Assembly: GCA_008632985.1 (NCBI GenBank)
Contig: QPGO01000139.1
Coordinates: forward strand, 124,001-188,000
Reading direction: 5' to 3'
DNA length: 64,000 bases
DNA from: Psammoneis japonica
Taxonomy: Eukaryota
Shown piece after piece: positions 5,702-41,870 of the stretch. Made by a program: the position numbers and the translations under genes. Position 1 is the stretch's first letter, and the number at the start of each line of letters is the position of its first letter. A model generated the notes under the pieces. The model did not search any database and had not been told where the DNA came from. It worked only from the letters and a program-made list of their open reading frames with translations.

Positions 5702-5737
5702 CTCCCTCTCAACCGAAAAGAGAAGGAGAACTATCAG

Positions 5738-8700
5738 TCACCAGCCCATGAGGGCTTTGCGACCAGTACGGAATAGATCAACAGTCAATCCTTTAGTAAA
5801 CTGGTCAGCAAGCTGTGCAGCTGAGCTCACAGGCTCAATTTTGATCTCCAAAGCCTCAACTTTAGTACGAAACCAATGGCAGGGAATGCCGATGTGCTTG
5901 GTTCGTGGGGATAATTTTGGCATGCGGGCGAATTGGAGGCAGGCAGCATTATCTTCGTACACAACGGATGCTGGGAGGTTAGTAGAGTCAATGGGAGAAT
6001 CCTCAGTTCCGTCGTTGGCGTGTCGGAAAGCCTTCGAATGTGTCGAAATGTCGGTCTGTCTGTCCGGCTGTCCGAAAACGAGCGCGTTGATTTCCTTCAC
6101 GATCTCGCGAAGGGGGATGAGATCACGCATCGCTTGGGAGAGGGCGACATACTCGGCTTCCATGGTAGAGAGTGCGACGAGGGTCTGTAACTTGGACACC
6201 CAGACAATCGGACATCCAGCACAATAAATGACATGTCCCGCACGTGACTTGACAGACGTGGGATCTTGTCCATCTTCAACACTGAAGAGTCCCGCGAAAT
6301 CAGCATCAACATAGCAGTCGAGTCGTTGATCGGCGGTTGGAGTTAGGATAAGTCCTTTGTCGGCCGCATCCTTCAGGTGACGAAGAATGCGCTTAATGGC
6401 CGCAGCGTGGGAGGCCTTGGGTGCGCAGGAGAACCGCGCGACTTGATGGGTCGCGCAAGCAATGTCCGGGCGGCTGTTGGACGCTAGACACATCAGCATG
6501 CCGACCACGGAACGGCAGTCATAAGGCTCTTCGAACGGTGGCCCTTCGGCATCGCTGCCAGCAGGAGTGGGCAAGGCAGGAGTGGGTGCGCCGTTGCACT
6601 CAGTCATCTGTGCGGTGCGGAGAACTTTCTCAATTGGGCCGGGTTGGGTCAGGAGGAATCGGCCATCTTCGAGCTTTTGAATCTTGACACCTAGAAAGTT
6701 ACCGACTTCGCCTTCATCACGTAGATCAAAGACATGGCGTTGCTCATCGTCAGAAATGCCCAACTTGGCAATCTCTGCTTCCAAGGCTTGGGCCGATGCG
6801 CCGGCGAACACGGCATCATCAACATGCACCACACACAACATGCCCTTTTTGAAATAAAGACAAGGGTCAATGGCGGATTGAATCCATCCTCTTTCGAGCA
6901 ATCCGTCCCTCAGCTTTTCACAGAAGCACTTGGGAGACTGGCGTAGGCCGTGTGGGCCTTTCAATAATTTCAGCACCAGATCGGCGCCCGATTTTGGTTG
7001 GAAACCCTTGGGAGGCTCTACATGGACCTTCTCCTTGACATCAGCTTGGCAGAAGGCTGTAGTGTAGTCCACTTGACGTGCAGTCCAACCTTCCTTGAGT
7101 GCCGTGGTGAGGAGAAGGCGCATGGACGACCATTGCACTGCCGGCGCGCAGGTCTCGAAAAAATCGATCCCGTGTTTCTGCAAATCGCCGCGAACGCAAT
7201 GTCGTGCCTTGCACTTCAAGGGCGCACCATCCGGGAGTCGTTTGAGTTTGAAAGCCCATGTGCCGGGTAGTGCATTCATGTCTGCCGTTCTTTGCACCAT
7301 TTCCCATGCACGTTGGTGGAGCAGCGCGTTGGTTTCAATTTTCACAGCCTTGGCCCACTCTTCGGATTCATCGCTGCGCATGGCCTCGTGCAAAGAAGGC
7401 ACATCGGGATCTTTTTGCTTTTTAGCAGTTGCACACACCNNNNNNNNNNNNNNNNNNNNNNNNNNNNNNNNNNNNNNNNNNNNNNNNNNNNNNNNNNNNN
7501 NNNNNNNNNNNNNNNNNNNNNNNNNNNNNNNNNNNNNNNNNNNNNNNNNNNNNNNNNNNNNNNNNNNNNNNNNNNNNNNNNNNNNNNNNNNNNNNNNNNN
7601 NNNNNNNNNNNNNNNNNNNNNTGTGGCTCCCTCTGAAACCCTTGCAGGAGAAGGTGCCAGGATCGTCGGAGGCGTCGGCGGAGCCGGTGGCGGAGGTTCA
7701 GGAGCGGCAACGGCAGGGGGCGTTTGTGCCTCTGGTGGCGGTTCGTCAGGTGCAGGGGCAGGAGCCACGACTGAAGGGTCATTGGGAGCAGCTGCAGGAA
7801 CGTCCGGAGGAGGTGGTTCGAAGGTGCTGCGTGTGCGGGAAGCCCATGCCAGCTCCCTCTGTTTACGTTGAAGTTCTTCCGGAGTCAACCAATCGTCTTG
7901 AAGATGAATCGACTGGTCTTTTTTGAGGGGCATCTGGACACTCTGGTCCAGGCATGACTCTTCCCAGTGGCTTGGCGGCTCACTCTCCCTCGCGATCGAA
8001 GAGACGGCAGCAAAGAGATCGTCAAACACGACATGGCACTGGGGAGTGACGCTTCCTGTCTGAAGATTAAGCACAAGGGGCACCTCGCTGGAGTGGATGC
8101 TGCTCAAGCCAAGGAAGAGACCACGACGAGTGCGGGGTTGCCAGCGGGGCAATTTCTTGCCTTCTTGAAGTTTCGGATCAAGGACATGGACCGGACAGCC
8201 CCAGACGTGGATGTCGCGAAGACGATGTCGGGGCACAGCAGTCCCGGTAAAAATGTCCGCGGGGCAGCAGCCTTGAGCGTTGGGAGTCACGCCACAAATG
8301 TGCGCGGCATGAGACACGGCCACAGGCCATAAAGAGCTGTCTGTGCCCCCCTTCCAACGGATGGATGCGTGGAGGAGCATCGCTCTCGCCATGTTGGAGA
8401 CGGAGCGAATGCCGCGTTCTGCGACGCCGTTCTGATGGTGGGCGTTGGTTCCGCAAAAACGCAGACGTTGTTCGTGCTGTCGNNNNNNNNNNNNNNNNNN
8501 NNNNNNNNNNNNNNNNNNNNNNNNNNNNNNNNNNNNNNNNNNNNNNNNNNNNNNNNNNNNNNNNNNNNNNNNNNNNNNNNNNNNNNNNNNNNNNNNNNNN
8601 NNNNNNNNNNNNNNNNNNNNNNNNNNNNNNNNNNNNNNNNNNNNNNNNNNNNNNNNNNNNNNNNNNNNNNNNNNNNNNNNNNNNNNNNNNNNNNNNNNNN

Positions 8701-11317: not shown

Positions 11318-12225
11318 GCGCTTGACGGAGTCGAGCTTGGCAAAAACTTGACGATTGAAAAACTGGAGGATGTCTTTGACACCTTAGATAAAACAGCAGA
11401 CCCAGTTTCAACTGGCAACGCACAGTCCGTCTGCATGATCTTGAGCAGGCACAGAGCTTCGGTTGCAAGCTCGGTGCAGTCCTCGCCAGGGTGGTCATCC
11501 AGAGCCAAGTTGTTCAACTTTTCCTTGGCGGCCTTGACGTCAACCAGAGCACTGGCGTTGCAGGCATCCAGAGCCATCATAAATAAGACAGACCCCGGAA
11601 GATCCTTGTAGTTCTTCAAGTGATTAAACTTGGTTTCAATCTTTTCACGGAAGGTTTCGGTGATGCGCGACTTGACGATGAGTTGTGATGAGCCGATGTC
11701 ATCGATTTCATGCTGATCATAGCCTTCGTCACCTGTGGCCGCCACACGGGTCTCACATTCCTTCTCAAGGTCTTTGACAGTGAAGGCGTGAAGGTGATCA
11801 AAAAGGCACACGACCTTGCCGTCGACTTTCTTGAGATGGTAGAAAGTTTCTTGTCCGCGCGACTCGATTGAGTCCTGAATGGTCTTGACGAAGTGGTCTT
11901 TGTCCAGTTCAGCACTGGAACCATTGGATGACTCAATCTGGCCGTTGAACTTGGATGTGGTTGCCGAAGCGAGTTGATCTCTGAGAGATCGCTCGACAGA
12001 GTCGACAGCTTTCGGATGGCGACGTTGCGAGGCAAAACGGCAGGTGCGGGTGTCGGTCTGCTCGTGCTTGTTGTTCAGAGCCGAACCACCCAGACACACT
12101 CCATGAGAGTGGTGGATGCCGCCGCGAAGTGGCGTGGGGATCGTAGGAGGGTTGGTCAAGGTTTGCATCTTGGCGAAGGCCTCGGCAAACATCTTGACGG
12201 TGTCAGGATCCATGGACATGGTCAT
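11176..12225 (-). CDS. Copia gag N-terminal ORF (frameshifted relative to pol near 11330-11360)
   Basis: 349-aa ORF immediately inside the 5' LTR, overlapping the pol frame. The gag-like LPGSVLFMMALDAC region is present. Confidence 0.8.
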   Translation of the reverse strand: MTMSMDPDTVKMFAEAFAKMQTLTNPPTIPTPLRGGIHHSHGVCLGGSALNNKHEQTDTRTCRFASQRRHPKAVDSVERSLRDQLASATTSKFNGQIESSNGSSAELDKDHFVKTIQDSIESRGQETFYHLKKVDGKVVCLFDHLHAFTVKDLEKECETRVAATGDEGYDQHEIDDIGSSQLIVKSRITETFREKIETKFNHLKNYKDLPGSVLFMMALDACNASALVDVKAAKEKLNNLALDDHPGEDCTELATEALCLLKIMQTDCALPVETGSAVLSKVSKTSSSFSIVKFLPSSTPSSAWSANVACVTRQKSPRMPTVRILDLLASLAGSPRPMANSLAMKIGLP

Positions 12226-12398
12226 GGATGATTCGACACAGAGGATCGATCAGTGGGTGGGGATTGCGACACAGATGATCGCCGTTGGATTGCGATGTAG
12301 AAGATCGCCGTTGGATGGGATGTCATCTGTAACGAGACGAATGAGTGGCAGCAACTCCGTCACGAGTTGATGCCGGTGCGTGGATTGGGGTCGTAACC

Positions 12399-12686
12399 AC
12401 TTGGGATGCAACAACACACTGTGTAGGATGGAGAGTTCAGGACTCTCTTGAGGTTGTACAATGCAACAGAGGATGACAAGAAGCAGGTTTGGGACAATAA
12501 GATACGCTAAAGATACGAATTGTGAGAAGATCTCACGAGGGATTGGAGATGACATTATGACCTAACGGTCGTGTGTGTCACTCCGATTACTATCGCTAGA
12601 AGACTCAACGGACATTTCTTCCGGAAGAAGAGATCCATGACCGGAAGCGTCATCCGTGAATCAGATTCGGTTGTTGACTCGTGACT
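12399..12686 (-). repeat. 5' LTR of the Copia element
   Basis: Direct repeat of 5414-5701. Followed on the minus strand by PBS-like GGTTACGACCCC (12387-12398). Confidence 0.95.
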
Positions 12687-13889
12687 CATAGCACCCGAAC
12701 TTTCGTGCATGCTTTGTACTTTATTCTGTGTATCAGAAACGAAAAGGTGGCAGTCACGAGTCGAAGAAAGCCGTTTCACAAAAAGCGCACAAAACGCATC
12801 GCTTCATCAGCATGTGGCGATCATAGGTTTGAAGAGGCGTCGGAAGAACTCCATCATTGTATCCTCTTATAAGGAGCAAAAGCAAGAAAGACTGTGTTGA
12901 GCTTGTGTGCCAACAAACAGCCAGTGACGAGGACACAACACGCAACATCCTCTTTGTGGATCATCATCCAACACAATGGTCTTTCAACCGTCGTTGCTTT
13001 GAGTGTTGGTTCTGGCTTGTCTCATGGCAGCGTGTTCTTGTGGCAATGCATAATTGGGCGCTTCACTGAACGGCTGTGTCTCATTGTCTTCATTTACAAA
13101 AACATTTGAGGTGAAACATCAGATGCTTCAAACAACACAATGACGTTGCAGTTGTCAAAATGTCAAAGAGAAGGATGTCCGTGGTGCTCTTTTGCTTCAT
13201 TCAGACACTCATCAGCCACCAGCAAATCATGACTTCTTGACATCTGCACAAGTTTTGTGAAATGTTTCATCAGTGTCATCTTCATCACATGCCTCTCCAG
13301 TCAACTTGGCAGTGGCCCACAAATGGTTGGGTGCAACAGGCGGAGAGTGCACAATGTTGTGCAATGCATCATCATTGGCAACATGTTCTGTCTTGCACTT
13401 TTGTTGTCTCTTTGTGCTTTGTCGCCCAGTTCTTGATGAACTGACAAAGCTGAAGACATGATTTGGTGGTGTTTTCATTGTTCATTGTGGTCAGATGAGT
13501 CCTGACAGGCCAGCCATTCTCCTCTGGATTTTCATCATTTTTGCAACTGACTCTCATGGAAACATCTGAAAGTTGCAAACCTTGATCTGCCAGCAGAATG
13601 TTTTGTGTCAGCAAACACAGCAATTTCAATGAAACCCCAAACTGTGCCAAAGTCATTGCACTCCATTTCGCACACAAAGACCGCTTGCAAATTTGGTCAG
13701 TTTGAAAGTGGTCAGCCCCAAACCCCGACTTCATCTCACCTGTCTGTCTCCGGCCCGTTTGGGGTCAGTGCAGGGGGGAGACACACAGATGGACATGCAC
13801 TCACGAAAAAACACCAGCTAAAAAAATCGCACCGTGGCACCAAAATGACGCAACAGCTCTGGCGGGAAGAATCAAGGTTCTTCTCGCAA

Positions 13890-16800
13890 GGGTGTGAACA
13901 AGAAAAGAGGAAAAGGTCAAAATGGTGAAGCAAACAAAACAGTTGAACATGCCGACAAGGCTGATGATGAGGGCAACCAATTGGCGCAGACAATGAACCC
14001 CAGTGCTGATTCTGCACAAAATTCATGCACCAAGGAAAACAAGATGAAGGAGACAGCAGTCACCCCTCCAGCACATGGACATGAACACGCAGCAAAAACA
14101 AGAATGACAAGGACAAAATGGAGTTAGAAGAACAAACCAAAGAGCTGCAGATCATGAGTCAAGACCATGTGACAGAAGACAGTGCAGACAGCGATGCAGA
14201 AGAAGGAGAGAACTGTGACAACACACTCAACAAAGGATTCATTCAGAACACGTCAGTGATGCCAGACTGTGCTGAACCAGATGAACAAACAAATCCAGAG
14301 AAACTCAAGGAGAGCAAAGATGAACAATCAGAAGAAGGAAGCCCTCAAATGGACAAGGACACTGACATCAAAGAGGGAAAGGAAGATCCCACAGAAAACC
14401 TCATGAGCACCAACCATCAAGATGCATCCACAATGGAAGAATCAGAAGAAAAAGAAGAATCGTCAACAACACATTGGAGTGTCAGATGCAATGTGTGGCT
14501 GGCTGCCCCTTCAACAGATGAACCATTCAAGGAAACCGCGAAAATCCTGGCACAGGCTCTGGAGATTGTTCAGAATGTGCTGGGAGACAATGCATGCATC
14601 AGTCCATGGGGTCCAGATCTTTGTGACACGTGTGGTGATTGGACTTCTCCAGAAGACATCCCAGAAGGAAAGGCGCAAGACCGAGAACTCTTCAGCTCTT
14701 TTTTGGGAGCAGGGTGTTGCAACCCACAAGTGAATCAAGAACATGCAACACACTGTTCAATTCACTCAGTCATTGAAGGAGATCTGAAGTTTCACCCAGC
14801 AGAACTTGGCTCCAAACTCTGTGGGACAATGGAAGACATCAAGTGTGGGAAGTTCTCGGCAGCACAAAACCCCATCCCCTGCCAAGCAAAATGCGCCGAA
14901 TGCACAGGTTGGCTCCACTGCAGCAGCAAAACTGCAACAGAAGTCACACTGCATGACAATGTTCGACACTGTCTGGGCATCCAGAACTTGCAAGACCTTG
15001 GCCTGCAATGGAGGACCACATGCGGAACTGATGGCAGGTGACCAAAGTTTGACCGTGATGACCCAAAGAAGAACCCCATGGCCTTGCATGTTGACGTGGA
15101 GATTCATCAAGCCTGCAAAGCAAGAGCGCAAGCAGAGAAGATTTGGAGAGTTGGAGCAAGGAAGAAAATCTTTGGATCAATGCTCCAATTTGTTCCTTGC
15201 TTCTCTTCACAAGCCCTTCAATGTGCTCCAGATGACACAAAGAAGAATGTCACAGAACTGGCACAATGCCAACACTGCTTCACAGAACAGGTCATTGTTG
15301 CTGTGGACCATGCACTCTTCAAAGATCCAGACATGACTGCCAAGGATCACAAGGGAAAACCAACTAACATGCAATGCCATTTGATGAGGAAAAGAGAGTC
15401 GCTGACCCCACCTCAGAGAAGCACAAGATGACCCCCTTTTTCCACCACGTGGACTGCAAATGGAATCGTCCAAAGGAACATGTGATGACATTTCTGTGCA
15501 AAGCACACGTCGCAGTGATGCAGATCATCAACAACCTCATCCCAGAGGCATTGCACTTCCTCGGTCCAGAAGCTGCATCATGGTTCAAGGCAACAGGCAT
15601 GATTGCCATCTGCAAAGATGCAGTCTATGATCCAGACACAGGCACCACAACCTCAAAAGAGAATGAAAAACTTCTAGAAATTGTTGAAGACAACCCATGG
15701 GGAATCAAAGACAACTGGCAGTCCAATGTCAGTGCTGAACAGCAAGTGCAACAGAAGCGAGAATCATCCAAATCTACCCAAAAATCTAAAAAGGGAAGTG
15801 TCAAGCAGGCAAAAATGCTGATGGAACAAGTGGCGGCACGTCTGGAAAATGTGGATGATGTTGGTTCAGTTGGGACAGCTCGCAACAAGGATGACGACAC
15901 AACACACTCCAAAACCCAGGACAAGTCAGTCAAATTCCAGGGGATGGAAGCTGCAGGAGCAACACAAAAGAACAAAAATCTTTTGACAGTGCTTCCTTGG
16001 AGACCACTCCATCAACTTGAGCAAAGTCAGAGAAAGCTGAAGCAGAGCCAGCCAAGCAGCAGGCTTGCCTGGGGATGGAGGAAGACACCGACAGTCTGGC
16101 CTCACCAATGACACAAGAAGGAACATCGGCAGTGGAAGACACCACCAGTGCCCAGGCCAAGGGCACTGGAGGAGATCCCTGAACCACACCATCCTTGGCG
16201 GACATGTCGGCAACCGCCAAAGGAGGGTGTAAATTTGGAAAATGACAGCTGACACACAGATGAACAGCGGGGAGACTCCATTGAAATCAAAATGCAGAGT
16301 GCCTGCCGTTTGGCCTTCCATGACATTGGAGCAGGCCTCCCAGTGGAAAAAACCAAGCACAGCAAGCACAATGAAATCAAACAATGGATGACAAAGTGCA
16401 AGGTGGACTCCATGGGAATCATTGAGGCAAACCCAAACTTCAAATGGATTTCAAAAAACCAACAATGGAATGATTGTTGGTGCACACTCCATTGATTGCA
16501 CACCTCAGTTGCTGCCAACACTCACCACTCCATGTCCGGAAGAAGGCAACATGGAGGGGTGGGACAACTGGTCCAGCACACACTCAGCCATCACCTCATT
16601 TCAAAAGGAAGCGATCCAACTGGGCCAGGCCAATGGATTTGGGCCAGATTCAAAGGGAAGGAAGGGACACACACAAGAATGACATTGGCACACAGGCCAG
16701 TGCACTGCAGGACAGGCCACCCAGGAACAGTGTGCTCTCAGCACTCAGTTTTCCTGCTCTCAAAACAAAACATGCGGGACCCAAGAACAGCACTCCAACA

Positions 16801-19632
16801 GGATCTACATGCTCAGATTCAGAATGGCAAAAGGAGGGAGACTTGACAGTCCCGGGGGTTGACCTCAAGGAAAATGTGAGGAACACAGATGCAATCTTGT
16901 GGACAAAGTCTGTGCATCTGGTTGACACACTACGAATGACCCATCCGGACCTGGAACCAGCAGCCACTTGTGACCAGAACAAATCAGAGACACCAATGGA
17001 TGTGATCCACACGTCCCCAGTGCTCCCTGCATTGGGGCACCCAAGATCATTTCCACACAGGGCATTGTTTGCACCCAGGCAATGCAACGGTCTGGGTGTC
17101 CCAGACATCTGCACACTGCAAGGCCTGCTGAAGCTGGAAGCATGTCTGCAAGAAGGAGATGCTCTGTCTGTGACTGGGAAAGAACTTGCGGCAGTGCGGG
17201 AGAACATGCAGTTGGAGCTTCTTGGGGCACCTGGAGAAATCTGTCAGCTGGACCATGAGAGACCAGCTCTGCTGGTCACTGACACGTGGGTCATGTCACT
17301 TTGGGCCTTTTGCTGGGAACACAACACAGAGCTGGCATCACCAGAAATGCCTGTTCCACTGCAAAGGGAAGATGATTTGTTCCTGATGGAAAGGATCATT
17401 GCAAATGGATGTAAAGGTGAGCGCTTGCAAAAAATCAACCTGCACAGAATGTGGGTCAAGGCACTGCAAGTCTCAGATGTTGCATCAGGTGATGGGAAAT
17501 GCACTCTGCAGGAGCACTGCAATGGATTGAAGATGTGCGAAAGCAACTGCGACTGGCCAAAAGCAGGATTTCCATCCACGGCATGCTGGAGACTTTGGCA
17601 AGAAGCATTGGCAGCATGCCTTTTGCTGCCAGGAAGGAACCACAATCTACAACTGCGATGCGGTCTTGGAAAATGGACGATTGACGCTGGCTCTTGAAAG
17701 TGGTGTTGCTCCAGAAGCAAGGACAGAGCATGTTGCCTCCAAGAAGATTTAGTGCATCAGGCATTTTCTGTGCTTCCTCAATCCAGGAGAAGGAGGAAAA
17801 GACACCACCACCACACAAGTGACTCAATGTAGATTCCATGTGATGCTCATCCAACTCAGATGATTAGAAACCCGAGCTGCATCACACCAGCAGGCACCTT
17901 GGAACAAACTCTGCAACCCAGCATGTCGGAGGAGTTCAAGTGGCACCACATGCCTTGCAAACATGAACCACCAATGGCACCCCTGGTTCAGGGTGTCATC
18001 AATGGAACAGCGGCATGCACAATGGATGGCTTGTTCAAAGAATCCTTGGCAACAGCAGCCATGATGTTGCTCCCGTCCTTTGGACATGCTCGCAGATGCC
18101 GTGGAGTGAATCCAACACCGGGAAGAAAGGAGGATTGAATGGCCTGCTGTGGTGAATTGGGAGGAATCTATGGGCCACTCAGGCACCTGACTGATCTGTG
18201 CAAAGAGCCCAGCACACAGGAAGGATGCATCACTGTGGGTTGTGACTGTGATGCAGCTCCACACACTTGTTTTTACAATGAGTGCGACAACCCAAAACAG
18301 CAAAACCACAACCTGACACAACCTGTTTGAAAGATGCTCCAGGAACTCCCCATTCTTGTGATTCCAGAGGAAGCAGAGGCACATGAAGATGACAAGGTTC
18401 TGCTGCAGCAACTCACACCCATGGAGCAACTAAATGTGGAGATGGATCTGCTGGCCAAAGCACACTGGGAGGCCTTGAAGGCGACCGATCTTCAATGTCA
18501 TGACATGTCAGAGCAGAACAGGTGGCATGTCAAGCTCGGAGGAGAGACCATGAGCTGCTGGGATAAAAACAGGGTGATTGACCACATCTGTGGACCACCA
18601 GTGAAGCAGCATTGGTCGGAGAGGCTGCAGTCAGAACCTTCCAGTGTGGAGATAAATTGGGGGAAGCCTTGGGCAAGGCCAGGCAGCAAATCCCTGCCTT
18701 CCGGAAACTGGGGCAACCAAAGTGGTCAACAGGCTTTGTGGTGACTGATCAAAACCTTGAATGTTGGAAGATCACGAACATGGCAGCATGCCCCAGGTGC
18801 AGAGAAATGGAAAAGGGCATTGATCATGGGCTTCAATGTCTGGCAATGGCGGCACAAGAATTGTGGGACAAGAAAGCAGACAACCCAAACAAGTGGCTGA
18901 AGGAACAACACACAAACCCAGAACTGCACAAGGAAGAACTGCTCCATTGTCTGTTGCAATGGCAACAACAGGAACCTTGCAACCCTTCTGCAGGAAATCT
19001 GCAGGTGCGTGCATTGTCAGAGGAACAAGAAACATTGGGGAGCAATGCGCTGGCTGGAGGATTCTTCTCTTTGGGATGGACAGATGTGCAAAAAGCCTGC
19101 CACCGCCATCTAGATCACCATGACACAGGACTGAGATGGCTGTCCGGACTGATCCAACAACTGTGGAACACAGCCTGGGACATGTGGCGACACCACATGC
19201 GCATCTCCGAACTGCCCACTTCAGAATCAAAACTTGCAGAAAATGGTGTGCTGGACAATTGGATTGAAGAGGAATTTGCCTTCCAATTCAACCGGCCAAC
19301 CCCTCATTTCTCCCACTTGACCAGATGGTTCAACTGTTCCTTGGAATGCATCCAGACAGAGGACTTGGACTGCAAGAAGCAATGGCCAAAGGCTGTTGCT
19401 GTGGCAAAGAGCACTCTGGATCATCAGGTGGGTTGATTCACACATCAACTGCAACCGCACCAAAATCACCCCACAACTGACTCCGCGGCATTGTGAAAGT
19501 GCATTTGCACGTTGCTCTGTGCCCATCCATGGTTGTGGATTGTTGGGGCAAGCAGGCGTGACCAAGCTCACCACAGGTGGTGGCCCAAAACAAATGGGTC
19601 ATGCAATTTTTAGGATTGAATTGAATTGAATT
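13890..19632 (+). mobile_element. Degenerate non-LTR retrotransposon (Ambal-like LINE): ORF1, APE endonuclease, RT deleted, RNase H, CCHC, (TTGAA)n tail
   Basis: Broken acidic ORF1 at ~13.9-16.2 kb. Endonuclease-like GIIEANPN/GSDPTGPGQWIW/TLAHRP/GVDLKENV at 16.3-17.0 kb. Post-RT GLGVPD. RNase H-like TMDG..GELGGIYG..ITVGCD..AHEDD..LNVEMDLLAK at 18.0-18.5 kb. CPRC..DHGLQC. Ends in TTGAATTGAATTGAATTG at ~19616-19632. Confidence 0.75.
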
Positions 19633-19949
19633 GGCAGCATGTTCTTGTGGTGGCAATTCAATTGGTTCACTTGTTAGAGCAGTGACAACAACAACAACCT
19701 GTGACTTCTGTCTTCTGGTGCACCACAACAACAGTTCATCATGAACCAAAAGAAGAAGTCTCCCGTTGAAACAAGAATCAACATGGCAACAATGAGGACA
19801 CTGCAACGGAACATCTCCGTGATGATTTTGTTGATGACAAAAAGGGTGTTGCAATCAACAAAGATGACAACAACAAACCTCTCAACAACCAAAACAACAC
19901 AGTTGTTGTCAACATGATTGGTGTTGGCTCCAACACTTGACCCCACTTC

Positions 19950-21085
19950 CAGGATGTGCCCTGATGCACATTTGCACGACATTGGTCAGTGCGGCACTTT
20001 TGGTGAGCTGCCGAAGAGCAAGATGTTGATGCCACTTGCCCTCAAACCTTGACCGTGTCTGATGTGCAAGCCATTGCACAAATGTGTCACACCACACATC
20101 CCAAACTGCCCACACTGTCACACACTTTGCGTCGCATGATTTTTGTTGAAACAACAACAAGCCAATCCACCCGGTTGGTTGTGTGCACAGAAACGCCCTC
20201 TTGATGCCTTGCATCAATCAAGTGATGGAATGTTGCAAACAAAACAAGGATGCTCAGTTGCCTGACTGTTTGTTCCTCATGGACGATGATTCATGGTTTC
20301 ACATGGATGAGGTCTTGGACACGTTGCATGAGCAGTTGCCCAATGGAGCAGCACAGGTGGTGGTGGGGTGTTTGATTCAATCTCAATGCAATCTACACTT
20401 GAACTTGCATTGGGGAGGATTTGGAGTCATTCTGACCAAGGGAGCTGTGGCGCGATTGATGCAGCCGATTGAGTGTTCTGCAACTGCTGCTCTCCAAGTT
20501 GACAAGGACAACAATCAGGAATTTGTGCAACATGTGTGTCAACAATTGGAACAAGACCTGGTGGGTGAAAAGAGATTCTTTTGACCAGGCATGTCCATCA
20601 TGAACTTGATTCACGAGTGCAGTTCACAACAACCACACACCCAGCACCAGAAATGGGATCCTGCAGTGGGGCATTGCATGCATTCTGACATGGCGCTGGC
20701 CTGCTTTTTCAACTTTTGTTGCATTGCCAAGGCTTCTCAATTCATTGCAGATGGAGCCACGAGCCATCCTCTGTGGTTGGATGCCAAAGATGTGGCCGCC
20801 ACCACCAAGGAGGCAAAGGATGCCACTGCTGCTGCTCAGATGCTGCCCCACTGTGATCGCGTTCGAGCTTGCAATGAAACGTCAGTGCACTGGACCAAAA
20901 AGTGGAGCGGCAAAGTTTGCAAGTCCAGTGGTCATTGTTTGCACAAGATGCCACAGACCTGCACGACCGAGTTGCATTTGTGTCACTGGAGTCCATCCCA
21001 AAACAAGACCTGGCACAAATTGAGACCCGCCGTGGGTCGCAGTGCAAAAGGCGCACAGAATTTTCTTTTGGTCGAAAAAATTTGA
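19950..21085 (+). pseudogene. Fringe-like (GT31-type) glycosyltransferase pseudogene
   Basis: Fragments GWLCAQKRP, LPDCLFLMDDDSW (DDD motif), WGGFGVILTKGA and GHCMHSD, with frameshifts and a TGA stop. Tyr-free and TpA-depleted. Confidence 0.6.
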
Positions 21086-22259
21086 AAGGCATCGCGTTCG
21101 AAAGAGCGCAACAAGAGCAGTCAATTGCTGCCCTTTTAACCCTCAGAATCTTGGCCCTTGCGTGGTGCGGTCTAATCTCCAGTGCTCAAATCATGCACAT
21201 TTCTGCATGGGTCTTAAATCACGACCTTTGCATCAGCCTTGGCTTGTCAGACATTTTGGTTCACATGCTGAAACTCATCAACTGTTTGGATTTGAAAAAA
21301 AGCAAAGATTTTTTTATGACAAATTCAATGTGTTCTTTCATGTTCAGGCGTGCAATTCCAAAATGCGCAAACATTGTGGTGTCCACATGGGTGCAGATCT
21401 TGGGTGGGTCTCAATGTGTGATGGACTCCATGTTCCCAAATCGCACTTGCTGCAGTTGTTTGATGAGATCAATGTGGCCGTGTCACAACATCATCAGGCA
21501 AAGCACAAAGCAGAAGCACCGTGGTGATGAAGGAAGGTGGCATCTTGTTGTTTTGTTTTGCGGGTCTTTGTGGCAAAGGTGGAACAAAGACAAAGAAGAC
21601 ACAGCAAGACCAACAGAGGAGGTAAGATGAGTTGCCACCATGCAATGGCTCAAGCTCTGTGTCATGTCGAAAATGACACAGGAGCAGAATGAACATCATC
21701 ATGGGTTGTGGCAAAACAAGGGATGCACCAGACAGGAGCAGCTGCTGGAGTGTGCGTTCCTCTCCTCTGTCACTGACAAACATTCTGGATCCGGTGGCTC
21801 TCTCAAAAACAAAAAAAAATAGATGCATTTTGTCAAGCTGTTCACTGCAAACCACACAGTTGGAGAGAAGCACATTTTGTCATTCGATGCAATGGGGAGT
21901 CAACTGCACAACAGAGACCTTTTTTTGCAGACTACTGATGGACCATCGTGATGGTGCCAACTTGCACTCTTCAGACCGCAGAAGCCACAAAACATCAGAA
22001 TCAGCCACAATGACAATGACACCCCGGCTCACACTGCTGACCTCACCATGTCATTTTTTCATGATTTGCACACTGTCGAGGAAGCATCTGAGTTCCTTGA
22101 TGTCTCTGCAGCGGCCTCACATGTTGTGGAGCTGCTTGAGGGGGAAAGATGCTCCACCTCTGGATGCAACTGCCCTGCCATGCACCGCAACAAATCAAGA
22201 GAGGACCTGGGTCCAGCCACTTTTGGGTTCTTCACTGTCAAGGCTGGTTTTCCCAAAAG

Positions 22260-24200
22260 CTGATCAAGAAAGCAATTGTCAAGGGTGGGATCTCCATGGG
22301 TCTCAACATCTCTGTGATGAAAAAGTTGGTGACAAACAGAGTTGCTGTTGTTGCAAACGACAGCTGCTTGAAGATTGGCTGCTCTGCAACAAACATGCGG
22401 ATGCCTCGAAACAAGGAAATTTGGACCAAGATTGCAAATGCTGTGGGCAGTGACCTCTTGGATGCGGTCAAGGACAAGCTTCAAAATGAGCCTCATGTGG
22501 GACTGTGGCTGGCCCCTTGGCATTTTAAACCAGAAGAAAGGGCACACAATCCCAACACACAAAAGAGTGGATGATGAACAAGGCAGATGCTAAGAAGAAG
22601 TGTTGTGATGGTGACCGCTTTGTGTGGACTGGTTTTCCACCACCAAACTGCCTGCCTTCAAACTTCATTGCATGTGAACTGTCTGATCCTTCTTGGGAAT
22701 GACCAAGCAACTGTTGGAAATGGAGGAATGTGGCACCAGTGCAAGGTTCAGGCTTGCCATTGTGGGTTGCGGTGCACCGTTTGGTTGAACCACAAAGTGT
22801 TGGTGATCCCCAAACTCCCCTTGTGCATGTTGCATTGACAAAAACTCAAGTTGTTGCAAAGAAAATGACTTGGGATGGCTGTGTTGAAAACAGAAGAGTC
22901 AGAGAAGAAGGAAGAGGTAATTGCAAATCTTCACAGTGCCCTTGCACTTGCAAACCACAACAAGAAGGAGATGGAAAACACTGCAAAACAACTTCAGAAC
23001 AAACTGGAGTCATGTGAATTGGAGCTCAGCAAGTCCAAAGGGAAAATGCTTGAGTTGGAAAACAAGCTGGTGGTTCTTCATGGTTTGAATGATGATCGTC
23101 ATTTGACTTGTGATGACCTTGCACCAGGCAGTTGGCTGTCAAAGGCTGTGAGGACGCACACGCATTTTCCAAACTGTGAGGCAAATGAGGCCTTCCCACA
23201 AGTTCTGAATTGGGATGATGACACAGAGGGAGGTGGTTGCAACCTTGGTGATGGATTGTGTGTTGGATTTTGTCATCACAGCAGGGTTTCCACTGAAGAA
23301 CGACTCGGAGAAGTCAACGCAAGTGACCAGGAGTTTCCAACAAAACCTGAAGCAAGATCAAAAAACTGAAAGACTGAACACTTGATCTGTTCCATGCATG
23401 CAAAACTTGGAATCTCGTGTGAATTGATTGAGCCTTTGTTTGCCATCTCACCCAGTGTCATTGGCAATGTGGTGCACGCGTGGGCTCCTGTCTTCTTGAA
23501 TTGCTCTCTCTCTCTTGCTGTGGTTTCCCACCCCAACCAGATCACAAATGCTTCAGGCTTTCCCTGATTGATTTGTGTGGGCTTGTGGACATGCCCTTGT
23601 CTTCTTGCTTCTCGACGCAACAGAGCATTGGACGCAGACTGTGACTGGGAGTGATGCTCACTCAAGCATGCACAGTGACTGCAAGGTCATGATGCAACAA
23701 AAATGCTTGCGGACACAGATCCCATTGACTGTGCTCACAATGGATTGGCTGTGGAAGATGGGCACCCGGGTTCAATTTTAGATCCTGTTGCAACAAAGAT
23801 GAGCAAACTTTTGGACAATGTGCCATTCGGTCACACAACTTTAGACAACAAAGGACTCATGATCAACAGTTTTACAGTGCGGAAGGGAGTGGGGACCCAA
23901 CGACCTCCAAAAAAGATAAAGCTGCAGGTGAAGCAGTCAGAAGCGGTGGACACAGCTGCCATGCAAAAAGTTGGGAATCTTTGAATCTTCAACGAGATGG
24001 TGAACAGAGTGGCAAAGATGTCAACGCATTGTTTTGATTTGCCGGTGCCAATCCTCCAGCTTGGTCTTGCACCTTTGATGTTTCGAGTTGCATGTCTGAT
24101 GCAGAACTTTCATCCAGCATTGGTTCATGGGCAGACATCATCATTCGTTGATGAAAATGGCAAGGTTGCTCCAGTCAAGAAATTGACCACGCCGCGGTGA
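22260..24200 (+). pseudogene. ISL2EU/Harbinger-type DDE transposase (DDE_Tnp_4-like) with a possible N-terminal THAP-like domain, degenerate
   Basis: LLLDATE, HSDCK-GH, HPGSILD, NKGLMI, RPPKK, KVGNL*IFNEMVN..K and LMQNFHPALV follow the DDE_Tnp_4 motif order. There is an upstream coiled coil and an RMPRN..W...APWHF THAP-like segment. Confidence 0.7.
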
Positions 24201-24429
24201 GTTCCGATGGCATGGTGGGACAGATGAAGGTTTGTTGAACTGCAGAGGGCACATTCATCTTTGGGGTGGCATTGAAGAAGTTGAACAATTCACTTGTCTG
24301 AAAGAGGGGCATCCAGATGAGAGCCTTGTCAAAATGGGCAAGATGGCGTTGCAAGAGAAATGGGACAAAAAGCTGTGAGCTGGGCACACAAAGCATGCAG
24401 TGGGCAAGCCATGAACCATTGTTGTGACA

Positions 24430-24650
24430 GTTGGTGCAAATGCTGTTGACACAGCCACCCAATCAAATGCTGTCATCACAAGAGCATTGTTGCAACAGCC
24501 AACACAAATGCTGTTGATGCAGCCACCCAGTTGACGCAAATGCTGTCAACACAGCTGCCCAAACAAAAGCTGTCATTGCAAGAGCATCATTGTAACAGCA
24601 CTGTCAATGCAACTGCCCAAATGAATGCCATCATTGCAAGAGCAAATGAA
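24430..24650. repeat. Degenerate short tandem repeats (CAAATGCTGT(T/C)GACACAGCCACCC-like) between the two convergent transposon ORFs
   Basis: CAAATGCTGT-like units recur near 24437, 24464, 24505, 24537 and 24564. Confidence 0.6.
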
Positions 24651-24889
24651 AATTCTATTTTTGCAACATGGCCAATGTCATTGCAAACAAAATTACAACA
24701 GCCAGTTGCAACATGCAATGAACAGACCACTCCAGGACTCCTGCAATGTTTTGAAGAGATTTTTGATTGTGGCATGATCACCACAAAAGCAAGCTTCATC
24801 TGGCATTTTCTTGCATTTCGCCATGGTTCCATGAATCTCGCAGTTGGCTCCGACACCCTTTTGGACATTTCAGAAGGCATCTGAATCAT

Positions 24890-26995
24890 GTTTCATTGAA
24901 ACTTTCTTCTCTCCTTCCTCTGTGGTCCTTGGTGCTCGTGCAATCTGCATCTGTGAAACGCAAGTTGTTGCTCCAGTTTGAGGTTGGCTTGAAGATGGTT
25001 GGAGTCACATGCAAAGCCAGTCGTTGATGGCTTCTCTGCAAGCCGGTCTTCCCCCCAATGAAAGCACTGCAACCACATTGTCCTGGCTTTGTGACTGCAA
25101 CAGCCCAGTCCTGCAGTGCATGGGCCCACACAGAGTGATGCAACAATGCCTGTCATTCAACCAAGGTTGTGTTTGTCCTTGTCAAATGAAGTCTCCTCCA
25201 CTCGCAGCACAAGCAATGTCAGATGCAGCCACTGATGAGCATGTTCTCCAGGATCTGTCTTTCATTTGGTGCTGGAATCAGTGGTCATGGATGCTGGTTG
25301 TTTGGCCAAGACATGCAGCAGCTTTCTGTCCTCCAAGAAACAGATTGCATGACAATGCAGCTGTTTCTCCTCACACACATGCTGCAATGACCCCCCAACA
25401 CTTTTCTGATTTCATGTTTCCACCAATGTGAGCAAAGCATTGATGTGTTGTAAACTCAGGCAGTTCAGGGCTTTCAATGCAATTTTTGTCAAAGTCGTCA
25501 CTGAATTTTCCTCCAACAAACAAGTCACAGCAATCCTCAAGGTGTTTCTCAATGTGGCAGCTCCGTGGATCCAAAATGAACGGGTGGCTCAATTGATTGT
25601 CAAAGATTTGGAGAATGAATTCTTTGCTGTTGTCGCATTTGGTCTCAATTTTTTGAATGATCCACTGGTCTTCTTGTCTTGATTGCATGCATGTGACAGC
25701 TGGGGAATGCAAGAGCATGGGTTTTGGAAGCCTCCCACCAGCCGCTTCATTTCTTCACATGACATCGTGGATCCCATGTCATTTGCAGCACATTTCCACC
25801 ATGTGCACTCAAGCAGTCTTTCAATTCTGCAGCACTGCAATCTTCCACTCCCTTGTTCTTTGGCAGCAAGAAACTGGCTGTGTCATTGATCTCCTCTCTT
25901 GAACAATGCAGCAGCTGCAATGCACTCATTGCCTCAAGTGCTCCTCTCTCCTGCTTCGAAAATTTCTCGCACGTTCGTGGATCAATTGGTCCACACGAAT
26001 GCTGTCTTGTGCTTTCATTGGACAGCTCAATGATTTTGCCAGACTGCACAATGTTGCTGTTGCTGTTGCAATGACAACACTCTTCACAACACTTGACAAT
26101 GTCTCGAACATGCGTTTTGTGCGTTCCACAGCATGCAAGACCTCGTGGACATTTTTGTTGAGTTTGGAGTCAAGATGGAAAGCAAAGCTTGACACCAGTG
26201 ATTCAAGTGTCACATCTGGACAATTGATCATTGCACGGAATGTGTTGGTTGCCATTTTCTTCCCGGCACTGTGCACTCCACTTTTGTCTGGTGCACAATC
26301 ACATCCAAAACAAGCTCCACAAATCTGGAACACAATGCAGCCAAATTTCTTGAAAGAGTGCCAAAGGATCCAACAAGGATTGTTGGCTTCAAGCTCCAGA
26401 CTGTCTGGAATTGATGCAAGATTGAAGCATCAAAACTCCTCTCTTGAATGGCTGTCAACTGCCATGACACACTAGTGCCCAAGCATGAGGAGATCGCTGT
26501 CTCTGGTGATTGCAGCACACGGACGACTGTCATCGTCATTGTTGGTGCCAGTGAGGTGGCGTTGGCAATCTGCCTTTCCATGGGCAATGGTGGAATCAAT
26601 GCCAAGCTTGTTGCACACCCTCCTCATCACAGCTGTGAACAATGGGCCCACTTGACTGCTTGCGGCATTGCCTTGTTCAGCAGCTTCTCGGCGGAGGGCA
26701 TCGAGAGACGCTCATGTTCATCATGGCGTTTGTCAGCCAAGTTTTGACCATCAAAGACCACAAACATGTTCCACCAGCATGTGCATCACAAGTGACAAAT
26801 CTCACAAGCAAAATGTTGGAGCAGAATGGAGCAATCAACATTCTGGCTGGCACTGGATGTGCAAGACACAGTGCAGCTTCGAAGAAGGCCTGCCACATCA
26901 AACGAAACACGGTGTTTCCCAAAATTCAGATGGCGAAACGTCTTTGGCCTGTTTGGGGTTAAAGGCACCAGTGGTGGAAGTCCATAGATTCCCAT
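24890..26995 (-). pseudogene. EXO1/XPG-family 5' nuclease with C-terminal SWIM-like zinc finger, degenerate (probable second ORF of the transposon)
   Basis: MGIYGLPPLV start, VSFDVAGLL, FVVFDGQN (~26745), GIDSTIAHGKADCQ, AAITRDSDLLMLG, GCDC..GVHSAGKKMA (H3TH-like), and CVGPCTAGLGCCSH (SWIM-like, ~25090-25135). Confidence 0.75.
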
Positions 26996-27566
26996 GGGGT
27001 TGATCAGAGAACATCAGCACTTTGGCGAGCACACCTTGACGATGATGTGCGACGAGTGTTGAAAAGTTGAGATGAGAAATCCAGAAAAAAGCCAGCGCCG
27101 TCGATCACAAACAGCTGTTTTTGTCTGCCTGTCTTCCACCAAAAAAGGTCCATCTCCACTCTGGCCACCAGCTAGACCAGCAGCTAGAGCCACTCCACTA
27201 GCTAGCTAGAGTAGAGCCTGTCTATCTACTTCTGTCGACTGCAGCATCTGTGCCATCTCCACCGGTGTCCCCCGTCTATCACGGTAATGTGGTCTACGTA
27301 CAGTAAATAAACTTGGGTACGAAGAGAGGTCTGGCACAAAACGTGAGAAAGTGATGACGTGTTTGATGAGAACTCAAAATAAAAATCGCAGAGAAACACA
27401 AAGAAGAAAAAAGCGCGAAAATCGCCAAAACATCGCTGGTTGTTCCCTCCTAGCTACACATGACGAGGAACGAGTATTCCTCCAGTAACAACGCTGCGCA
27501 AAGAATCCAAATACATTGATGGTCTTGAGCAAGGCCCTATAATATTGATCCTATCCTCAGTGCGGT

Positions 27567-30500
27567 ATGCCTTCCCCTTCATCGATAATTGATTCGCTGT
27601 TTCCTACCCGAGATGGGAAAATCAGTTGTCCGTGTTCGTCGGTTCAATTCCATACAAGCGTCCCTGGCACCAGCTATGCTTTGATGGAACAGACAACAGC
27701 GCACTGTCACTGTAAAGATTGTCTTGGATTTGCTCGATCCTGTAAAAATGGGGAAGTTGTCATTGTAAACAACGCTACTCAATTTGTGCAGTTTTACAAA
27801 TCAGACATCAAGGCTATCAAGCCGACTAACGAGAATATTGGGCGAGTCAGGCTCCGCGAGGATTCTATCATGATTCGCTGTTATTGCAAAATTTGCGGGA
27901 CACCGATTGGAGCAGAAGTAGATGGAGCACCAGTCATGCTTGTCTATGCGCAATTGATTAAGTCGGGGACAGTTCACATATCCAATCTGATCCTGAACTT
28001 CAGAGATGCGGAACCTGGTACAAGAGACTACTCGAGGAGAGTCGTTGTTCGCAAAGGCATGTTTTGCCCTCTCTTTTTCGTTCGCCTCGTTATAAGGATC
28101 ATTATTGGTTTCCTATTCGGCAAGGGCAACGGTGGTTTTTTGAACGGCCAGTACGAAGATATTCCCGTTGGTTTGAAAAGCGTCGAAGAGAACAAGATTG
28201 ATTTGACGAAGAAGAGCGAAATGAACACCACAGAAGACACAATCATGTCCTTCGAAGAGACTGTGTCTGACGATGATTTTGTTTCAAAAGAGAAATCCGT
28301 GGAGAGGAAAGTTCTTGACGATGAGTCGACTATAGAGGATGAAGAAACGGCGAATGACTCGAAAGTTGCGGATGAGATAAACTCGATAGCTAGTGACAGG
28401 GAAGATGCGTCAGAAGCTTCCAAAGTCGAGGGTGTCGACGATATCGAGGATGCGAAAGATGCAGTCAAGTCATTTACGGCTGAGAGGTCCGTAGTGGAGG
28501 ATACGGAAAAGGACTCGGGAGACGATGCCAACTCCGAAGAAGTCACAGATGCGACAGAGAAAACAGAGACGTCTGATGATGATTTCGTTCTAAAAGATAA
28601 TACCGTAGACAGGAAATTGCTTGACGATGAATCGACGTTGGAGGATGAAGAGACGACGAATGACTCGAAAGTTGCGGATGAGATAAATTCGATAGCTGGT
28701 GACAGCGAAGATGTGTCAGAAGCTTCCAAAGTCGATGGTGTCGAGGATGCGAAAGAAAAAGTCCTGTCATTAGCGGCTGAGAGGTCGATAGTGGAGGATA
28801 TGGAAAAGGTCTCGGGAGACGATACCCACTCCGAAGAAGTTACAGATATGACAGAGAAAACAGAGACGTCTGACGATGATTTCGTTCTACAAGAAAATGA
28901 GGACGATGAGTCGACTTTGGAGGATGAAGAGACGACGAATGACTCGAACGTTGCGGAGGAGATATCGATAGCGGGTGACAGCGAAGATGCGTCAGAAGCT
29001 TCCGAAGTCGAGGGTGTCGAGGATGCGAAAGATACAGTCACGTCATTAGCGGCTGAGAGGTCGATAGTGGAGGATATGGAAAAGGACTCGGGAGACCATG
29101 TCAATTGCGAAGAAGTCACAGATGTGACAGAGAAAACAGAGACGTCTGACGATGATTTCGTTCTAAGAGACAATACCGTAGAGAGGAAAATACTTGACGA
29201 TGAATCGACTTTGAAGGATGAAGAAATGACGAATGACTCGAAAGTTGCGGAGGAGATAAATTCGATAGCGGGTGACAGCGAAGATGCGTCAGAAGCTTCC
29301 GAAGTCGAAGGTGTCGAGGATGCGAAAGATACAGTCAAGTCATTCACAGCTGAGAGGTCGCTAGTTGAGAATATGGAAAAGGACTCGGAAGACGATGCCA
29401 ACTCCGAAGAAGTCACGGATGCGACAGAGAAAATAGAGACGTCTGACGATGGTTTCGTTCTGAAAGATAATACCGTAGAGAGGAAAATACTTGATGATGA
29501 GTCGACTTTGGAGGATGAAGAGACGACGAATGACTCGAAATTTGCGGAGGAGATAAATCCGATAGCTGGTGGCAGCGAAGATGCGTCAGAAGCTTCCGAA
29601 TTCGAGGATGCGAAAGATACAGTCACGTCATTAGCGGCTGAGAGGTCGATAGTGGAGGATATAGAAAAGGACACGGGAGACAATGCCAACTCCGAAGAAG
29701 TCACAGATGCGACAGAGAAAACAGAGACGTCCGATGATGGTTTCGTTCTAAAAGATAATACCGTAGAGAGGAAAATACTTGACGATGAGTCGACTTTGGA
29801 GGATGAAGAGACGACGAATGACTCGAAAGTTGCGGAGGAGATGAATTCGATAACTGGTGACAGCGAAGATGCGTCAGAAGCTTCCAAAGTCGAGGGTGTC
29901 GAGGAGGTCGAGGATGCGAAAGATACAGTCACGTCATTAACGGCTGAGAGGTCGCTAGTTGAGAATATGGAAAAGGACTCGGTAGACGATGCCAACTCCG
30001 AAGAAGTCACAGATGTGACAGAGAAAACAGAGACGTCTGACGATGATTTCTTTTCAAAAGAGAATTCCGTAGAGAGGAAAATACTTGACGATGAGTCGAC
30101 TTTGGAGGATGAAGAAACGACGAATGACTCGAAAGTTGGGGAGGAGATAAATTCGATAGCTGGTGACTGCGAAGATGCGTCAGTTTGGAAGGGTGTCGAG
30201 CATGTCGAGGATGCGAAAGATGCAGTCACGTCATTAACGGCTGAGAGGTCGGTAGTGGAGGATATGGAAAAGGACTCGGGAGGCGATGCCAACTCCGAAG
30301 GAGTCACAGATGTGACAGAGAAAACAGAGACATCTGACGATGATTTTGTTTCAAAAGAGAAAGTCCTGGCAGATGAGATAGTAGGTAACGCGGGGTCGTT
30401 GAAGGATTATGAAGAAGCGATTAATAACTCGATTGGCTTGGAGGAGATCAAGTCGACATCTAGCAGAAACGAAGATGCTGCGGCTGCACCTGCTAGTTCC

Positions 30501-41800: not shown

Positions 41801-41870
41801 CTCAGATGACTTGAAACTCTATCTCGATGTGCTTGGTGGTGCCCTGAAAGAAAGCGGGGGTCCGGTATAG
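38837..41870 (+). CDS. Mitochondrial-carrier-family (phosphate-carrier-like) protein with a long N-terminal extension, probably plastid-targeted
   Basis: Carrier motifs PIDVCKTKIQ, PFEAVRIR and PADATISE. Signal peptide ending SHA-F. Intron 41301-41393, a probable short intron at ~40594, and apparent frameshifts near 39295, 40050, 40340-40380 and 41000. Confidence 0.8.

Follow-up and report, generated by a model that had tools for sequence, protein, structure and literature searches.

To our knowledge, no cellular process of targeted, dinucleotide-specific mutation of A:T pairs in DNA was known before 2026. The closest described counterpart of the pattern analyzed here comes from mutation-accumulation lines of the chlorarachniophyte Bigelowiella natans, in which 231 of 302 nuclear mutations fell within two integrated viral regions (nucleocytoplasmic large DNA virus, NCLDV, and virophage) and 230 of those 231 were A to G or T to C, all 230 of them at TpA (Mettrop et al., bioRxiv 10.64898/2026.01.13.699255). 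De novo change of TpA to TpG or CpA proceeded there at about 6e-7 per site per generation, in some lines only and approximately 1000-fold over background, and the genome carries 124 TpA-poor clusters rich in CpA and TpG, its TpA-poor genes being enriched in reverse-transcriptase and DDE domains (bioRxiv 10.64898/2026.01.13.699255). The authors propose an adenine deaminase, citing amphioxus and trypanosome ADAT2 editing DNA, and their Discussion notes that ADAR favours a 5' U (bioRxiv 10.64898/2026.01.13.699255). The present study analyzes a 64-kb window of the diatom Psammoneis japonica (the whole stretch of DNA considered, positions 124,001 to 188,000 of contig QPGO01000139.1 in assembly GCA_008632985.1), in which three long blocks, the largest at 13052-27170 and containing the remnant of a long interspersed nuclear element (LINE), have lost nearly all TpA to TpG and CpA, and in which a Ty1/Copia retroelement at 5414-12687 has lost it in patches. 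The likeness to B. natans is close: A:T becomes G:C at TpA only, giving TpG or CpA, which places the window in the same class; the change is limited to mobile or foreign-type DNA with other genes normal, tested in this 64-kb window only; and it leaves TpA-poor, TG/CA-rich runs, here 14 consecutive 1-kb bins (13001-27000). The window thus shares the B. natans signature and footprint, and the kind of process is therefore already described, so that the original prediction, made from the letters of this DNA, of a hitherto undescribed system is superseded by the account of TpA-only hypermutation in that preprint (bioRxiv 10.64898/2026.01.13.699255). Full-text literature searches returned no TpA hypermutation described for diatoms, and the same preprint was the sole relevant paper. 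New here are the lineage, the saturation, the identified targets, proof from a pair of long terminal repeats (LTRs) of action after integration, the separation from CpG decay, and a preference for T-A-pyrimidine.

The TpA depletion in the window is confirmed and extreme. Dinucleotide steps were counted in 1-kb bins across the window, and the 14 bins of 13001-27000 hold only 1-7 TpA each (observed/expected ratio, O/E, 0.01-0.10), with O/E of 0.19-0.46 for CpG, 1.65-2.00 for TG and 1.52-1.95 for CA; the 20 bins of 27001-47000 hold 26-52 TpA each (O/E 0.43-0.75) with CpG at 0.77-1.51, averaging about 1. With the flank O/E used as prior, about 498 TA are expected in 13051-26985 and 46 are observed (O/E 0.05, a deficit of 452; Poisson p = 3e-156), while CG is observed 233 times against about 794 expected (-561), TG 1453 times (+577) and CA 1629 times (+513). 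The TA and CG deficits total -1013 and the TG and CA gains +1090, with every remaining dinucleotide at most 80 off expectation, GA excepted (-174). AT, AA, TT, AC and GT are unchanged relative to the flank (O/E 0.91 vs 0.92 for AT, 1.165 vs 1.131 for AA, 1.22 vs 1.20 for TT), and so is G+C (0.48 vs 0.477). The same pattern is found in the block at 1-3064, which runs past the left end of the window and contains no Pfam family (TpA O/E 0.05, CpG 0.32, TG 1.69, CA 1.87; within 1-3060, 10 TA at O/E 0.048 and CG at 0.32), and in the block at 61203-63798, whose content was not recognised (TpA O/E 0.05, CpG 0.30; within 61210-63500, two TA at O/E 0.014 and CG at 0.24). Segmentation by the gaps between successive TpA added TpA-poor stretches that keep CpG, at 7065-9168 (TA O/E 0.11, CG 0.91), 10793-11580 (0.11 and 0.73), 11840-12298 (0.04 and 1.04) and, as a weaker block, 47419-48439 (0.11 and 0.64). 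The heavy blocks are thus low in both TpA and CpG, whereas the Copia element and an array of HA-domain genes have lost TpA and mostly kept CpG.

The consequences for translation are equally pronounced. Among 2795 residues in 11 long open reading frames (ORFs) of the block there is a single Tyr (0.04%), compared with 1.96% in 13 flank ORFs, and Cys and His reach 5.4% and 4.4% against 1.5% and 1.8%. The flank ORFs have a TpA O/E of about 0.54, and genes at 3.1-5.4 kb, between elements, are not converted. In all of these respects the original prediction was accurate: it had estimated a few dozen TpA where several hundred would be expected, with TG and CA abundant, had named the further blocks at 1-3.1, about 47.2-48.5 and about 61.2-63.5 kb (TA O/E 0.048, 0.11 and 0.014), and had described Tyr-poor, Cys/His-rich translations beside neighbouring genes with normal TpA.

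Both edges of the main block are sharp. On the left the block begins where a high-copy repeat ends, and dense TpA continues to 12870 and is followed only by single occurrences at 13051, 13095 and 13819; on the right, isolated TpA at 26473, 26960 and 26985 are followed by dense TpA from 27173. Contigs were assembled from one public read run, which contains 0.91 of the sampled words of 24000-32000, and numerous contigs have loose ends at 13052/13053, indicating that the repeat family stops exactly where the main block starts. One read-derived contig links 24113 to 27105 via 12 other letters, which puts an element end at most 70 bp from the right edge; the intervening segment of about 3 kb (24114-27104), missing by this joint from another copy or haplotype, is probably a nested insertion. 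Read-derived contigs with a word depth of 62-68 match the window with 0-5 differing letters each and cover 13719-16420, 16403-17793, 17770-19184, 19163-21205, 24059-25184 and 26745-28380, the last of these spanning the right edge with one difference.

The Copia element, on the minus strand, gives the most direct evidence of when the process acts. It consists of a 3' LTR at 5414-5702, a gag-pol interior at 5738-12249 (a gag frame and an open pol frame of 1881 codons with two N gaps, CpG approximately normal) and a 5' LTR at 12399-12687, of which the 3' LTR is a direct repeat; the LTRs are 289 bp long and 98.3% identical. A retroelement integrates with two identical LTRs. In the present pair 5 of 289 positions have diverged (12408, 12415, 12463, 12477 and 12484), and all five are TA in the 3' LTR, which keeps 16 of 16 TpA, against TG (2) or CA (3) in the 5' LTR, with nothing else differing (p at most 1.7e-5 by chance even under a transitions-only model). 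Because the LTRs began identical and now differ only at TpA, the process must act on DNA after integration, and an RNA or cDNA stage is ruled out for these five changes. The rate of TpA change since the Copia insertion is far above background. The five converted sites lie within the 86 bp adjoining the element interior and the remaining 11 TpA of the 5' LTR are intact, most of the LTR of this high-copy element being spared. Within the interior TpA loss is patchy (O/E 0.05-0.64 overall), with 0.05-0.24 across 12287-10688, 0.49-0.64 across 10687-9088, 0.11-0.13 across 8687-7088 and 0.35-0.41 across 7087-5888. Clusters of events within this insertion would leave such patches, and so would a mosaic handed down from parents only some of which were converted. 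A gradient coupled to transcription was also considered for the element and rejected, since the profile is patchy and non-monotonic.

Comparison with homologous proteins gives the direction of change and separates it from loss of CpG. For the LINE, the comparison used 31 long homologues and the 222 columns covered by 10 or more of them with an agreement of 60% or higher. None of the 6 conserved Tyr is kept, three now being His (CAY) and three Cys (TGC), as against 170 of 216 other conserved residues kept (binomial p = 9e-5), including Gly at 30 of 33, Trp at 26 of 29 and Pro at 17 of 18. Four changes of Leu to Pro and two of Ile to Thr are as expected from CTA to CCA and ATA to ACA, and Arg, kept at 7 of 14 (2 His, 2 Cys, 1 Gln), follows the CpG route. 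In the reverse transcriptase (RT) and RNase H of the Copia element, approximately 60% identical to 782 metagenome proteins and compared over 348 columns with 120 homologues, conserved Tyr is kept at 3 of 14 (4 Cys, 5 His, 1 Trp, 1 Phe) and Arg at 18 of 19. The YVDD box itself reads HVDD (codon at 6952), at a column where Tyr is conserved in 116 of 117 homologues. That Tyr is mostly lost with nearly all Arg kept implies that TpA loss advances before CpG decay begins and that the two are separable; on these comparisons TpA loss appears to be the faster or earlier process, and CpG loss a separate, slower one. Outcomes are balanced between strands, with Cys to His at 3:3 in the LINE and 4:5 in the Copia element and two TG against three CA in the LTR. 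The predicted conversion of TpA to TpG or CpA on either strand is therefore upheld by the dinucleotide balance, the fate of conserved Tyr and the LTR differences alike.

Survival of TpA is not random with respect to context. The three heavy blocks retain 59 TpA, whose contexts depart from expectation (chi-square p = 5e-10): RTAY (R, purine; Y, pyrimidine) is seen once against 16.7 expected, a survival of about 0.5%; mixed contexts 31 times against 32.1, about 8%; and YTAR 27 times against 10.2, about 22%. Survival is thus lowest where both strands read T-A-pyrimidine (RTAY), intermediate where one does (mixed contexts) and highest where neither does (YTAR). On both strands of the heavy blocks TAC and TAT stand at 0.05 and 0.03 of their flank frequency and TAA and TAG at 0.14 and 0.11; in lightly hit regions the values are 0.34 and 0.26 for TAC and TAT and 0.54 for both TAA and TAG. 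T-A-pyrimidine is hit hardest, with a preference of 2- to 3-fold.

A tandem array of six HA-domain units at 46759-48141 on the minus strand shows the process in a host gene family. Units A-D (47199-48141) are lightly converted, with 1-4 TpA per 224-bp unit and Cys or His where units E and F carry Tyr, and units E-F (46759-47180), on the TpA-normal side of the array, keep the conserved Tyr codons. One Tyr-Tyr site reads TGT-CAT, CAT-TGT and TGT-TGT in units A-D and CAT-TAT in the unconverted unit E, and these differing TG and CA outcomes at one site point to independent resolution of the same TpA.

The main block was searched for the elements it contains. Pfam searches with 19 and then 124 block ORFs found no family at E at most 0.01, and an Rfam search returned 0 matches. 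A word-indexed protein search with the ORF at 16474-17694 likewise gave 0 matches, but a full HMMER scan later found 1522 relatives, the best of which (P0006, 1836 aa) has Exo_endo_phos, RVT_1 and zf-RVT domains, so that this ORF belongs to a LINE ORF2. The non-LTR remnant occupies 16175-19448 on the plus strand, an APE endonuclease followed by a C-terminal region with a zf-RVT-like end, and is Tyr-free; tblastn placed the endonuclease at 16175-17100 and residues about 1043-1890 of the homologue at 17017-19448. The copy is without the whole RT region (residues about 292-1042 of P0006), with the endonuclease and the C-terminal 800 residues kept and the junction at about 17020-17070. For the C-terminal ORF the nearest protein-atlas clusters are labelled Bacillariophyta, which together with the HA array and the intron-poor genes accords with a diatom source and speaks against B. 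natans, a species with intron-rich genes. Downstream, at 20150-21082 on the plus strand and at single-copy depth, lies a Tyr-free candidate Fringe/galactosyltransferase-like pseudogene, for which the lead is a set of language-model scores of 0.93-0.94 between the ORF at 20150-20581 and Fringe/galactosyltransferase clusters of the protein atlas; a PDB sequence search found 0 matches and Pfam none. The only relevant weak Pfam match in the block was DDE_Tnp_4 at 23679-23981 (E = 0.13), no convincing terminal repeats were found for 24114-27104 or for the whole block, and no transposase was recognised in 24114-27104. Of the element names first proposed, then, the LINE is established by its domains, the glycosyltransferase stands as a lead, and the DNA transposon is unconfirmed. 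Viral contig scans with two block ORFs found no relatives, and the main block is accordingly not tied to a virus.

As far as the data go, the targeting cue can be assigned neither to pure recognition of repeats nor to simple spreading along a domain. Judged by the summed depth of read contigs at no less than 85% likeness, a measure of present copy number, high-copy sequence extends over 12.0-13.8 kb (summed depth 1500-4250), single-copy sequence over 13.8-21 kb (65-118) and sequence in 2-5 copies over 21-27 kb (130-370). The single-copy 13.8-21 kb is converted and most of the high-copy LTR is spared, which together do not support strict repeat targeting, and to that extent the "repeat-targeted" part of the original prediction is not upheld. 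The process also has a distinctive effect on reading frames. Conversion of TA to TG or CA destroys TAA and TAG and itself creates no stop, TGA in the block arising only from CGA by the CpG route; with no stops made and TAA and TAG lost, the block has many long open frames (18 ORFs of at least 150 aa in the 15-kb converted block, on both strands and in overlapping frames), and the Copia pol frame is still open.

Set beside the described systems, the window differs from B. natans in being near saturation (TpA O/E 0.05 against 0.45 for the B. natans NCLDV region), in its targets, which comprise two retroelements (LINE and Copia), a pseudogene of host type and an array of host genes rather than viral inserts, and in lying in a different, intron-poor genome; a rate is known for B. 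natans only. As in repeat-induced point mutation (RIP) of fungi, element DNA is hypermutated by transitions at specific dinucleotides, the borders are sharp and coding sequence is filled with missense changes. RIP of ascomycete fungi has a length threshold, which the largely spared short LTR recalls. The two are nevertheless not the same, as RIP turns CpA into TpA, enriches TpA and AT, and creates stop codons and AT-rich isochores, while here TpA O/E is 0.05, TG and CA are up, G+C is unchanged and stops are removed. RIP acts on duplicated sequence alone; here 12-13.8 and 21-27 kb are multi-copy and 13.8-21 kb is at single-copy depth. Decay of 5-methylcytosine (5mC) at CpG accounts for the CpG deficit of the heavy blocks (-561) and not for the TpA deficit (-452). 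The argument made at the outset that neither RIP nor 5mC decay explains the TpA loss is thus sound, the former running in the opposite direction and CpG being kept in the Copia element. The window also resembles restriction by APOBEC3 (on cDNA) and ADAR (on double-stranded RNA) in that editing would be a weapon against mobile nucleic acids, and resembles ADAR and TadA/ADAT2, base editors derived from TadA included, in the T or U 5' of the edited A. What APOBEC3 and ADAR attack is an RNA or cDNA intermediate, whereas here both strands of integrated chromosomal DNA are the substrate.

We estimate at roughly 0.85 the probability that these features jointly hold, i.e. a process specific for TpA, with the direction given above, on both strands, after integration, confined to elements, independent of CpG decay and with a 2- to 3-fold preference for T-A-pyrimidine. 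The explanation best supported is a host process of this kind that converts the A:T of the palindromic TpA in chromosomal DNA to G:C on either strand, yielding TpG or CpA; it acts inside mobile-element and pseudogene DNA and halts at or near element ends. Repeated exposure would strip more than 90% of TpA, targets would end as Tyr-free missense wrecks with long open frames, and older targets would lose CpG too, by the separate, slower decay expected of methylated cytosine. As the likeliest candidate chemistry we tentatively propose, at somewhat under even odds, that a TadA/ADAT2-type deaminase turns adenine in DNA into hypoxanthine. The natural tRNA substrate of these enzymes presents U-A-C in the anticodon loop, which the T-A-Y context here resembles, and a candidate of this type fits both the 5' T and the 3' pyrimidine. 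That the process defends the genome against mobile or foreign DNA is rather probable, and the chances are about even that it is the same system as in B. natans and not a convergent one.

Other explanations were considered against the same evidence. A modified base at TpA, for example N6-methyladenine (6mA) or a thymine modification on silenced DNA, could deaminate or mispair and so do at TpA what 5mC decay does at CpG. In its favour, the two steps are alike palindromic, pyrimidine followed by purine; transitions turn both into TG or CA within the heavy blocks, up to identical sharp edges; and this joint loss is what two maintenance-type marks of silent chromatin would be expected to produce. 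The two losses are uncoupled in the Copia element and the HA array, however, where TpA is lost without CpG, and the known eukaryotic 6mA motif is ApT, not TpA, and ApT is unaffected here (O/E as above), which makes this explanation unlikely. Misinsertion at WA motifs by Pol-eta is phase 2 of antibody somatic hypermutation, with a spectrum that favours A to G at TA, and error-prone patch repair could operate similarly if mismatch or base-excision repair in methylated elements recruited a Pol-eta-like polymerase inserting G opposite T; the heavy blocks, with their signature of CpG decay, would often present the T:G mismatches required. We regard this as very improbable, given that WA includes AA and yet ApA/TpT is not depleted, that TpA loss in the Copia element comes before any CpG decay, and that the B. 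natans changes are at TpA only (bioRxiv 10.64898/2026.01.13.699255). Editing of element transcripts from A to I by an ADAR-like enzyme, fixed by reverse transcription and insertion, would agree with the 5' U preference of ADAR (bioRxiv 10.64898/2026.01.13.699255) and with the fact that two identified targets are retroelements, and the Copia patches could then reflect template switching between edited and unedited RNAs. Editing of sense RNA yields TA to TG only, though, and Tyr to Cys and Tyr to His occur 3:3 and 4:5, on both strands; LTRs identical at integration differ at TpA only; and DNA that is not retroelement, the HA gene array and the glycosyltransferase-like pseudogene, is converted as well. 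The 3' neighbour here is a pyrimidine, whereas that preferred by ADAR is G, and altogether we find such editing scarcely plausible.

There is also the question of whether the pattern is real in the sense of having arisen in this genome, since it could come from sequencing, polishing or assembly, or from DNA already TpA-poor on arrival, whether because it was foreign or because selection had acted against TpA. The draft sequence of the window is scaffolded and contains N runs, and the sole read set found is possibly the assembly's own, so that the check on other reads urged in the original prediction is answered in part: contigs from public reads do reproduce the sequence, but sample and platform may be those of the assembly. 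Those contigs were made apart from the assembler, agree at normal depth and cross the right edge with one difference (26745-28380). They are also no mere copy of the assembly, as 8 single-copy differences between the two are shown, 7 being CpG transitions. The block moreover starts and ends at element boundaries, Tyr has become Cys or His at positions conserved in hundreds of homologues, and we know of no chemistry that converts TA specifically. Artefact or TpA-poor arrival is, in our view, barely credible.

Several points nonetheless weigh against the joint reading given above. Some of the surviving TpA may be new, formed by ordinary C to T change, which weakens the inference from context, and the base preceding Tyr to His codons, which tests T-A-Y on the opposite strand, is a purine in 5 of 8, not significant. 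Residual TpA in the Copia element shows no codon-phase bias (21:31:34 against 123:249:270 in flank genes), and its patches may have been inherited from converted parents through recombination at reverse transcription rather than made in place. Loss of CpG is not reported for B. natans in the available part of the preprint, and here it coincides with the heaviest blocks. Because the reads may share sample and platform with the assembly, a platform-specific error remains conceivable. Of 506 differing places in the read contigs 40 are shown, 32 of them within 12001-27170; among these 32, at least 18 are CpG against TpG or CpA, about 5 are TA against TG or CA and 2 are pairs of TG against CA, so that the differences shown speak mainly to CpG decay. 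In single-copy sequence 7 of the 8 shown differences between assembly and contigs are CpG against TpG or CpA (14155, 14404, 16268, 17892, 19511, 25997 and 26653), which suggests that CpG decay is still segregating in 13719-27170. Self-BLAST of the window found no paralogous copies of the converted blocks, and the spectrum of copy against consensus accordingly draws on few shown differences. Finally, the deaminase step is putative.

Evidence for the signature beyond this genome comes from 80 metagenome loci encoding Copia relatives, compared for TpA and CpG, in which the median TpA O/E is 0.66 and 2 of the 80 carry the signature: L076 (TpA O/E 0.04, CpG 0.20, TG/CA 1.67) and, more mildly, L065 (0.18 and 0.10). 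TpA O/E is at least 0.4 in 11 of the 13 CpG-poor loci, and ordinary decay of methylated elements thus spares TpA. In L076, which has about 42% protein identity to the Copia element of the window, just 5 TpA remain in 1789 bp (L076:1-1789), and each belongs to a Tyr codon that is in frame and conserved in position; the distant RT/RNase H it encodes has CVDD for the YXDD box and one in-frame stop. This suggests a lineage that may have been purged of TpA while selection kept essential tyrosines. Tyr-free relatives number 1 of 150 among LINE homologues (P0120, 0% Tyr) and 0 of 120 among Copia homologues. Protein clusters looked up for five homologues yielded no informative name or taxon.

The flank ORFs are ordinary eukaryotic genes, mostly long uninterrupted frames, and encode a radical-SAM methylthiotransferase, a triose-phosphate-transporter-like protein, a CS-domain protein, SRP receptor beta, a DHX37-like helicase and a PPR protein. 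Adjoining the main block and itself unconverted is an open frame of 1251 codons at 27549-31304, rich in Thr (107 Thr) with CpG O/E of about 1.5, internal repeats spaced about 300 bp apart (84-87% identity), and no Pfam family. The spacer that separates the helicase gene from the PPR gene contains a 163-bp unit three times in tandem, at 57594-58091, with 97-98.5% identity.

The findings have implications for annotation and for the understanding of genome defence. Converted elements, long-framed in all six reading frames and without Pfam families, will be mis-annotated as orphan genes, and TpA or Tyr content provides a cheap filter for such false orphans. The sole prior report is a preprint on one chlorarachniophyte, which leaves range, targets and enzyme open; to it the window adds action after integration, independence from CpG decay, the T-A-pyrimidine preference, which narrows the candidate enzymes, and the removal of stops. 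A natural DNA adenine deaminase, if that is what acts here, would be of interest both to research on genome defence and to base-editing technology, and since some diatoms are genetically tractable the question is testable. It is possible, though we would not put it as high as an even chance, that TpA-directed editing is a widespread defence of the SAR supergroup (stramenopiles and rhizarians), a mirror of fungal RIP that would recognise targets element by element, deaminate adenine in T-A-Y on both strands, erase tyrosine without making stops, and be old enough, as the environmental locus L076 would attest, to have reshaped transposon lineages.

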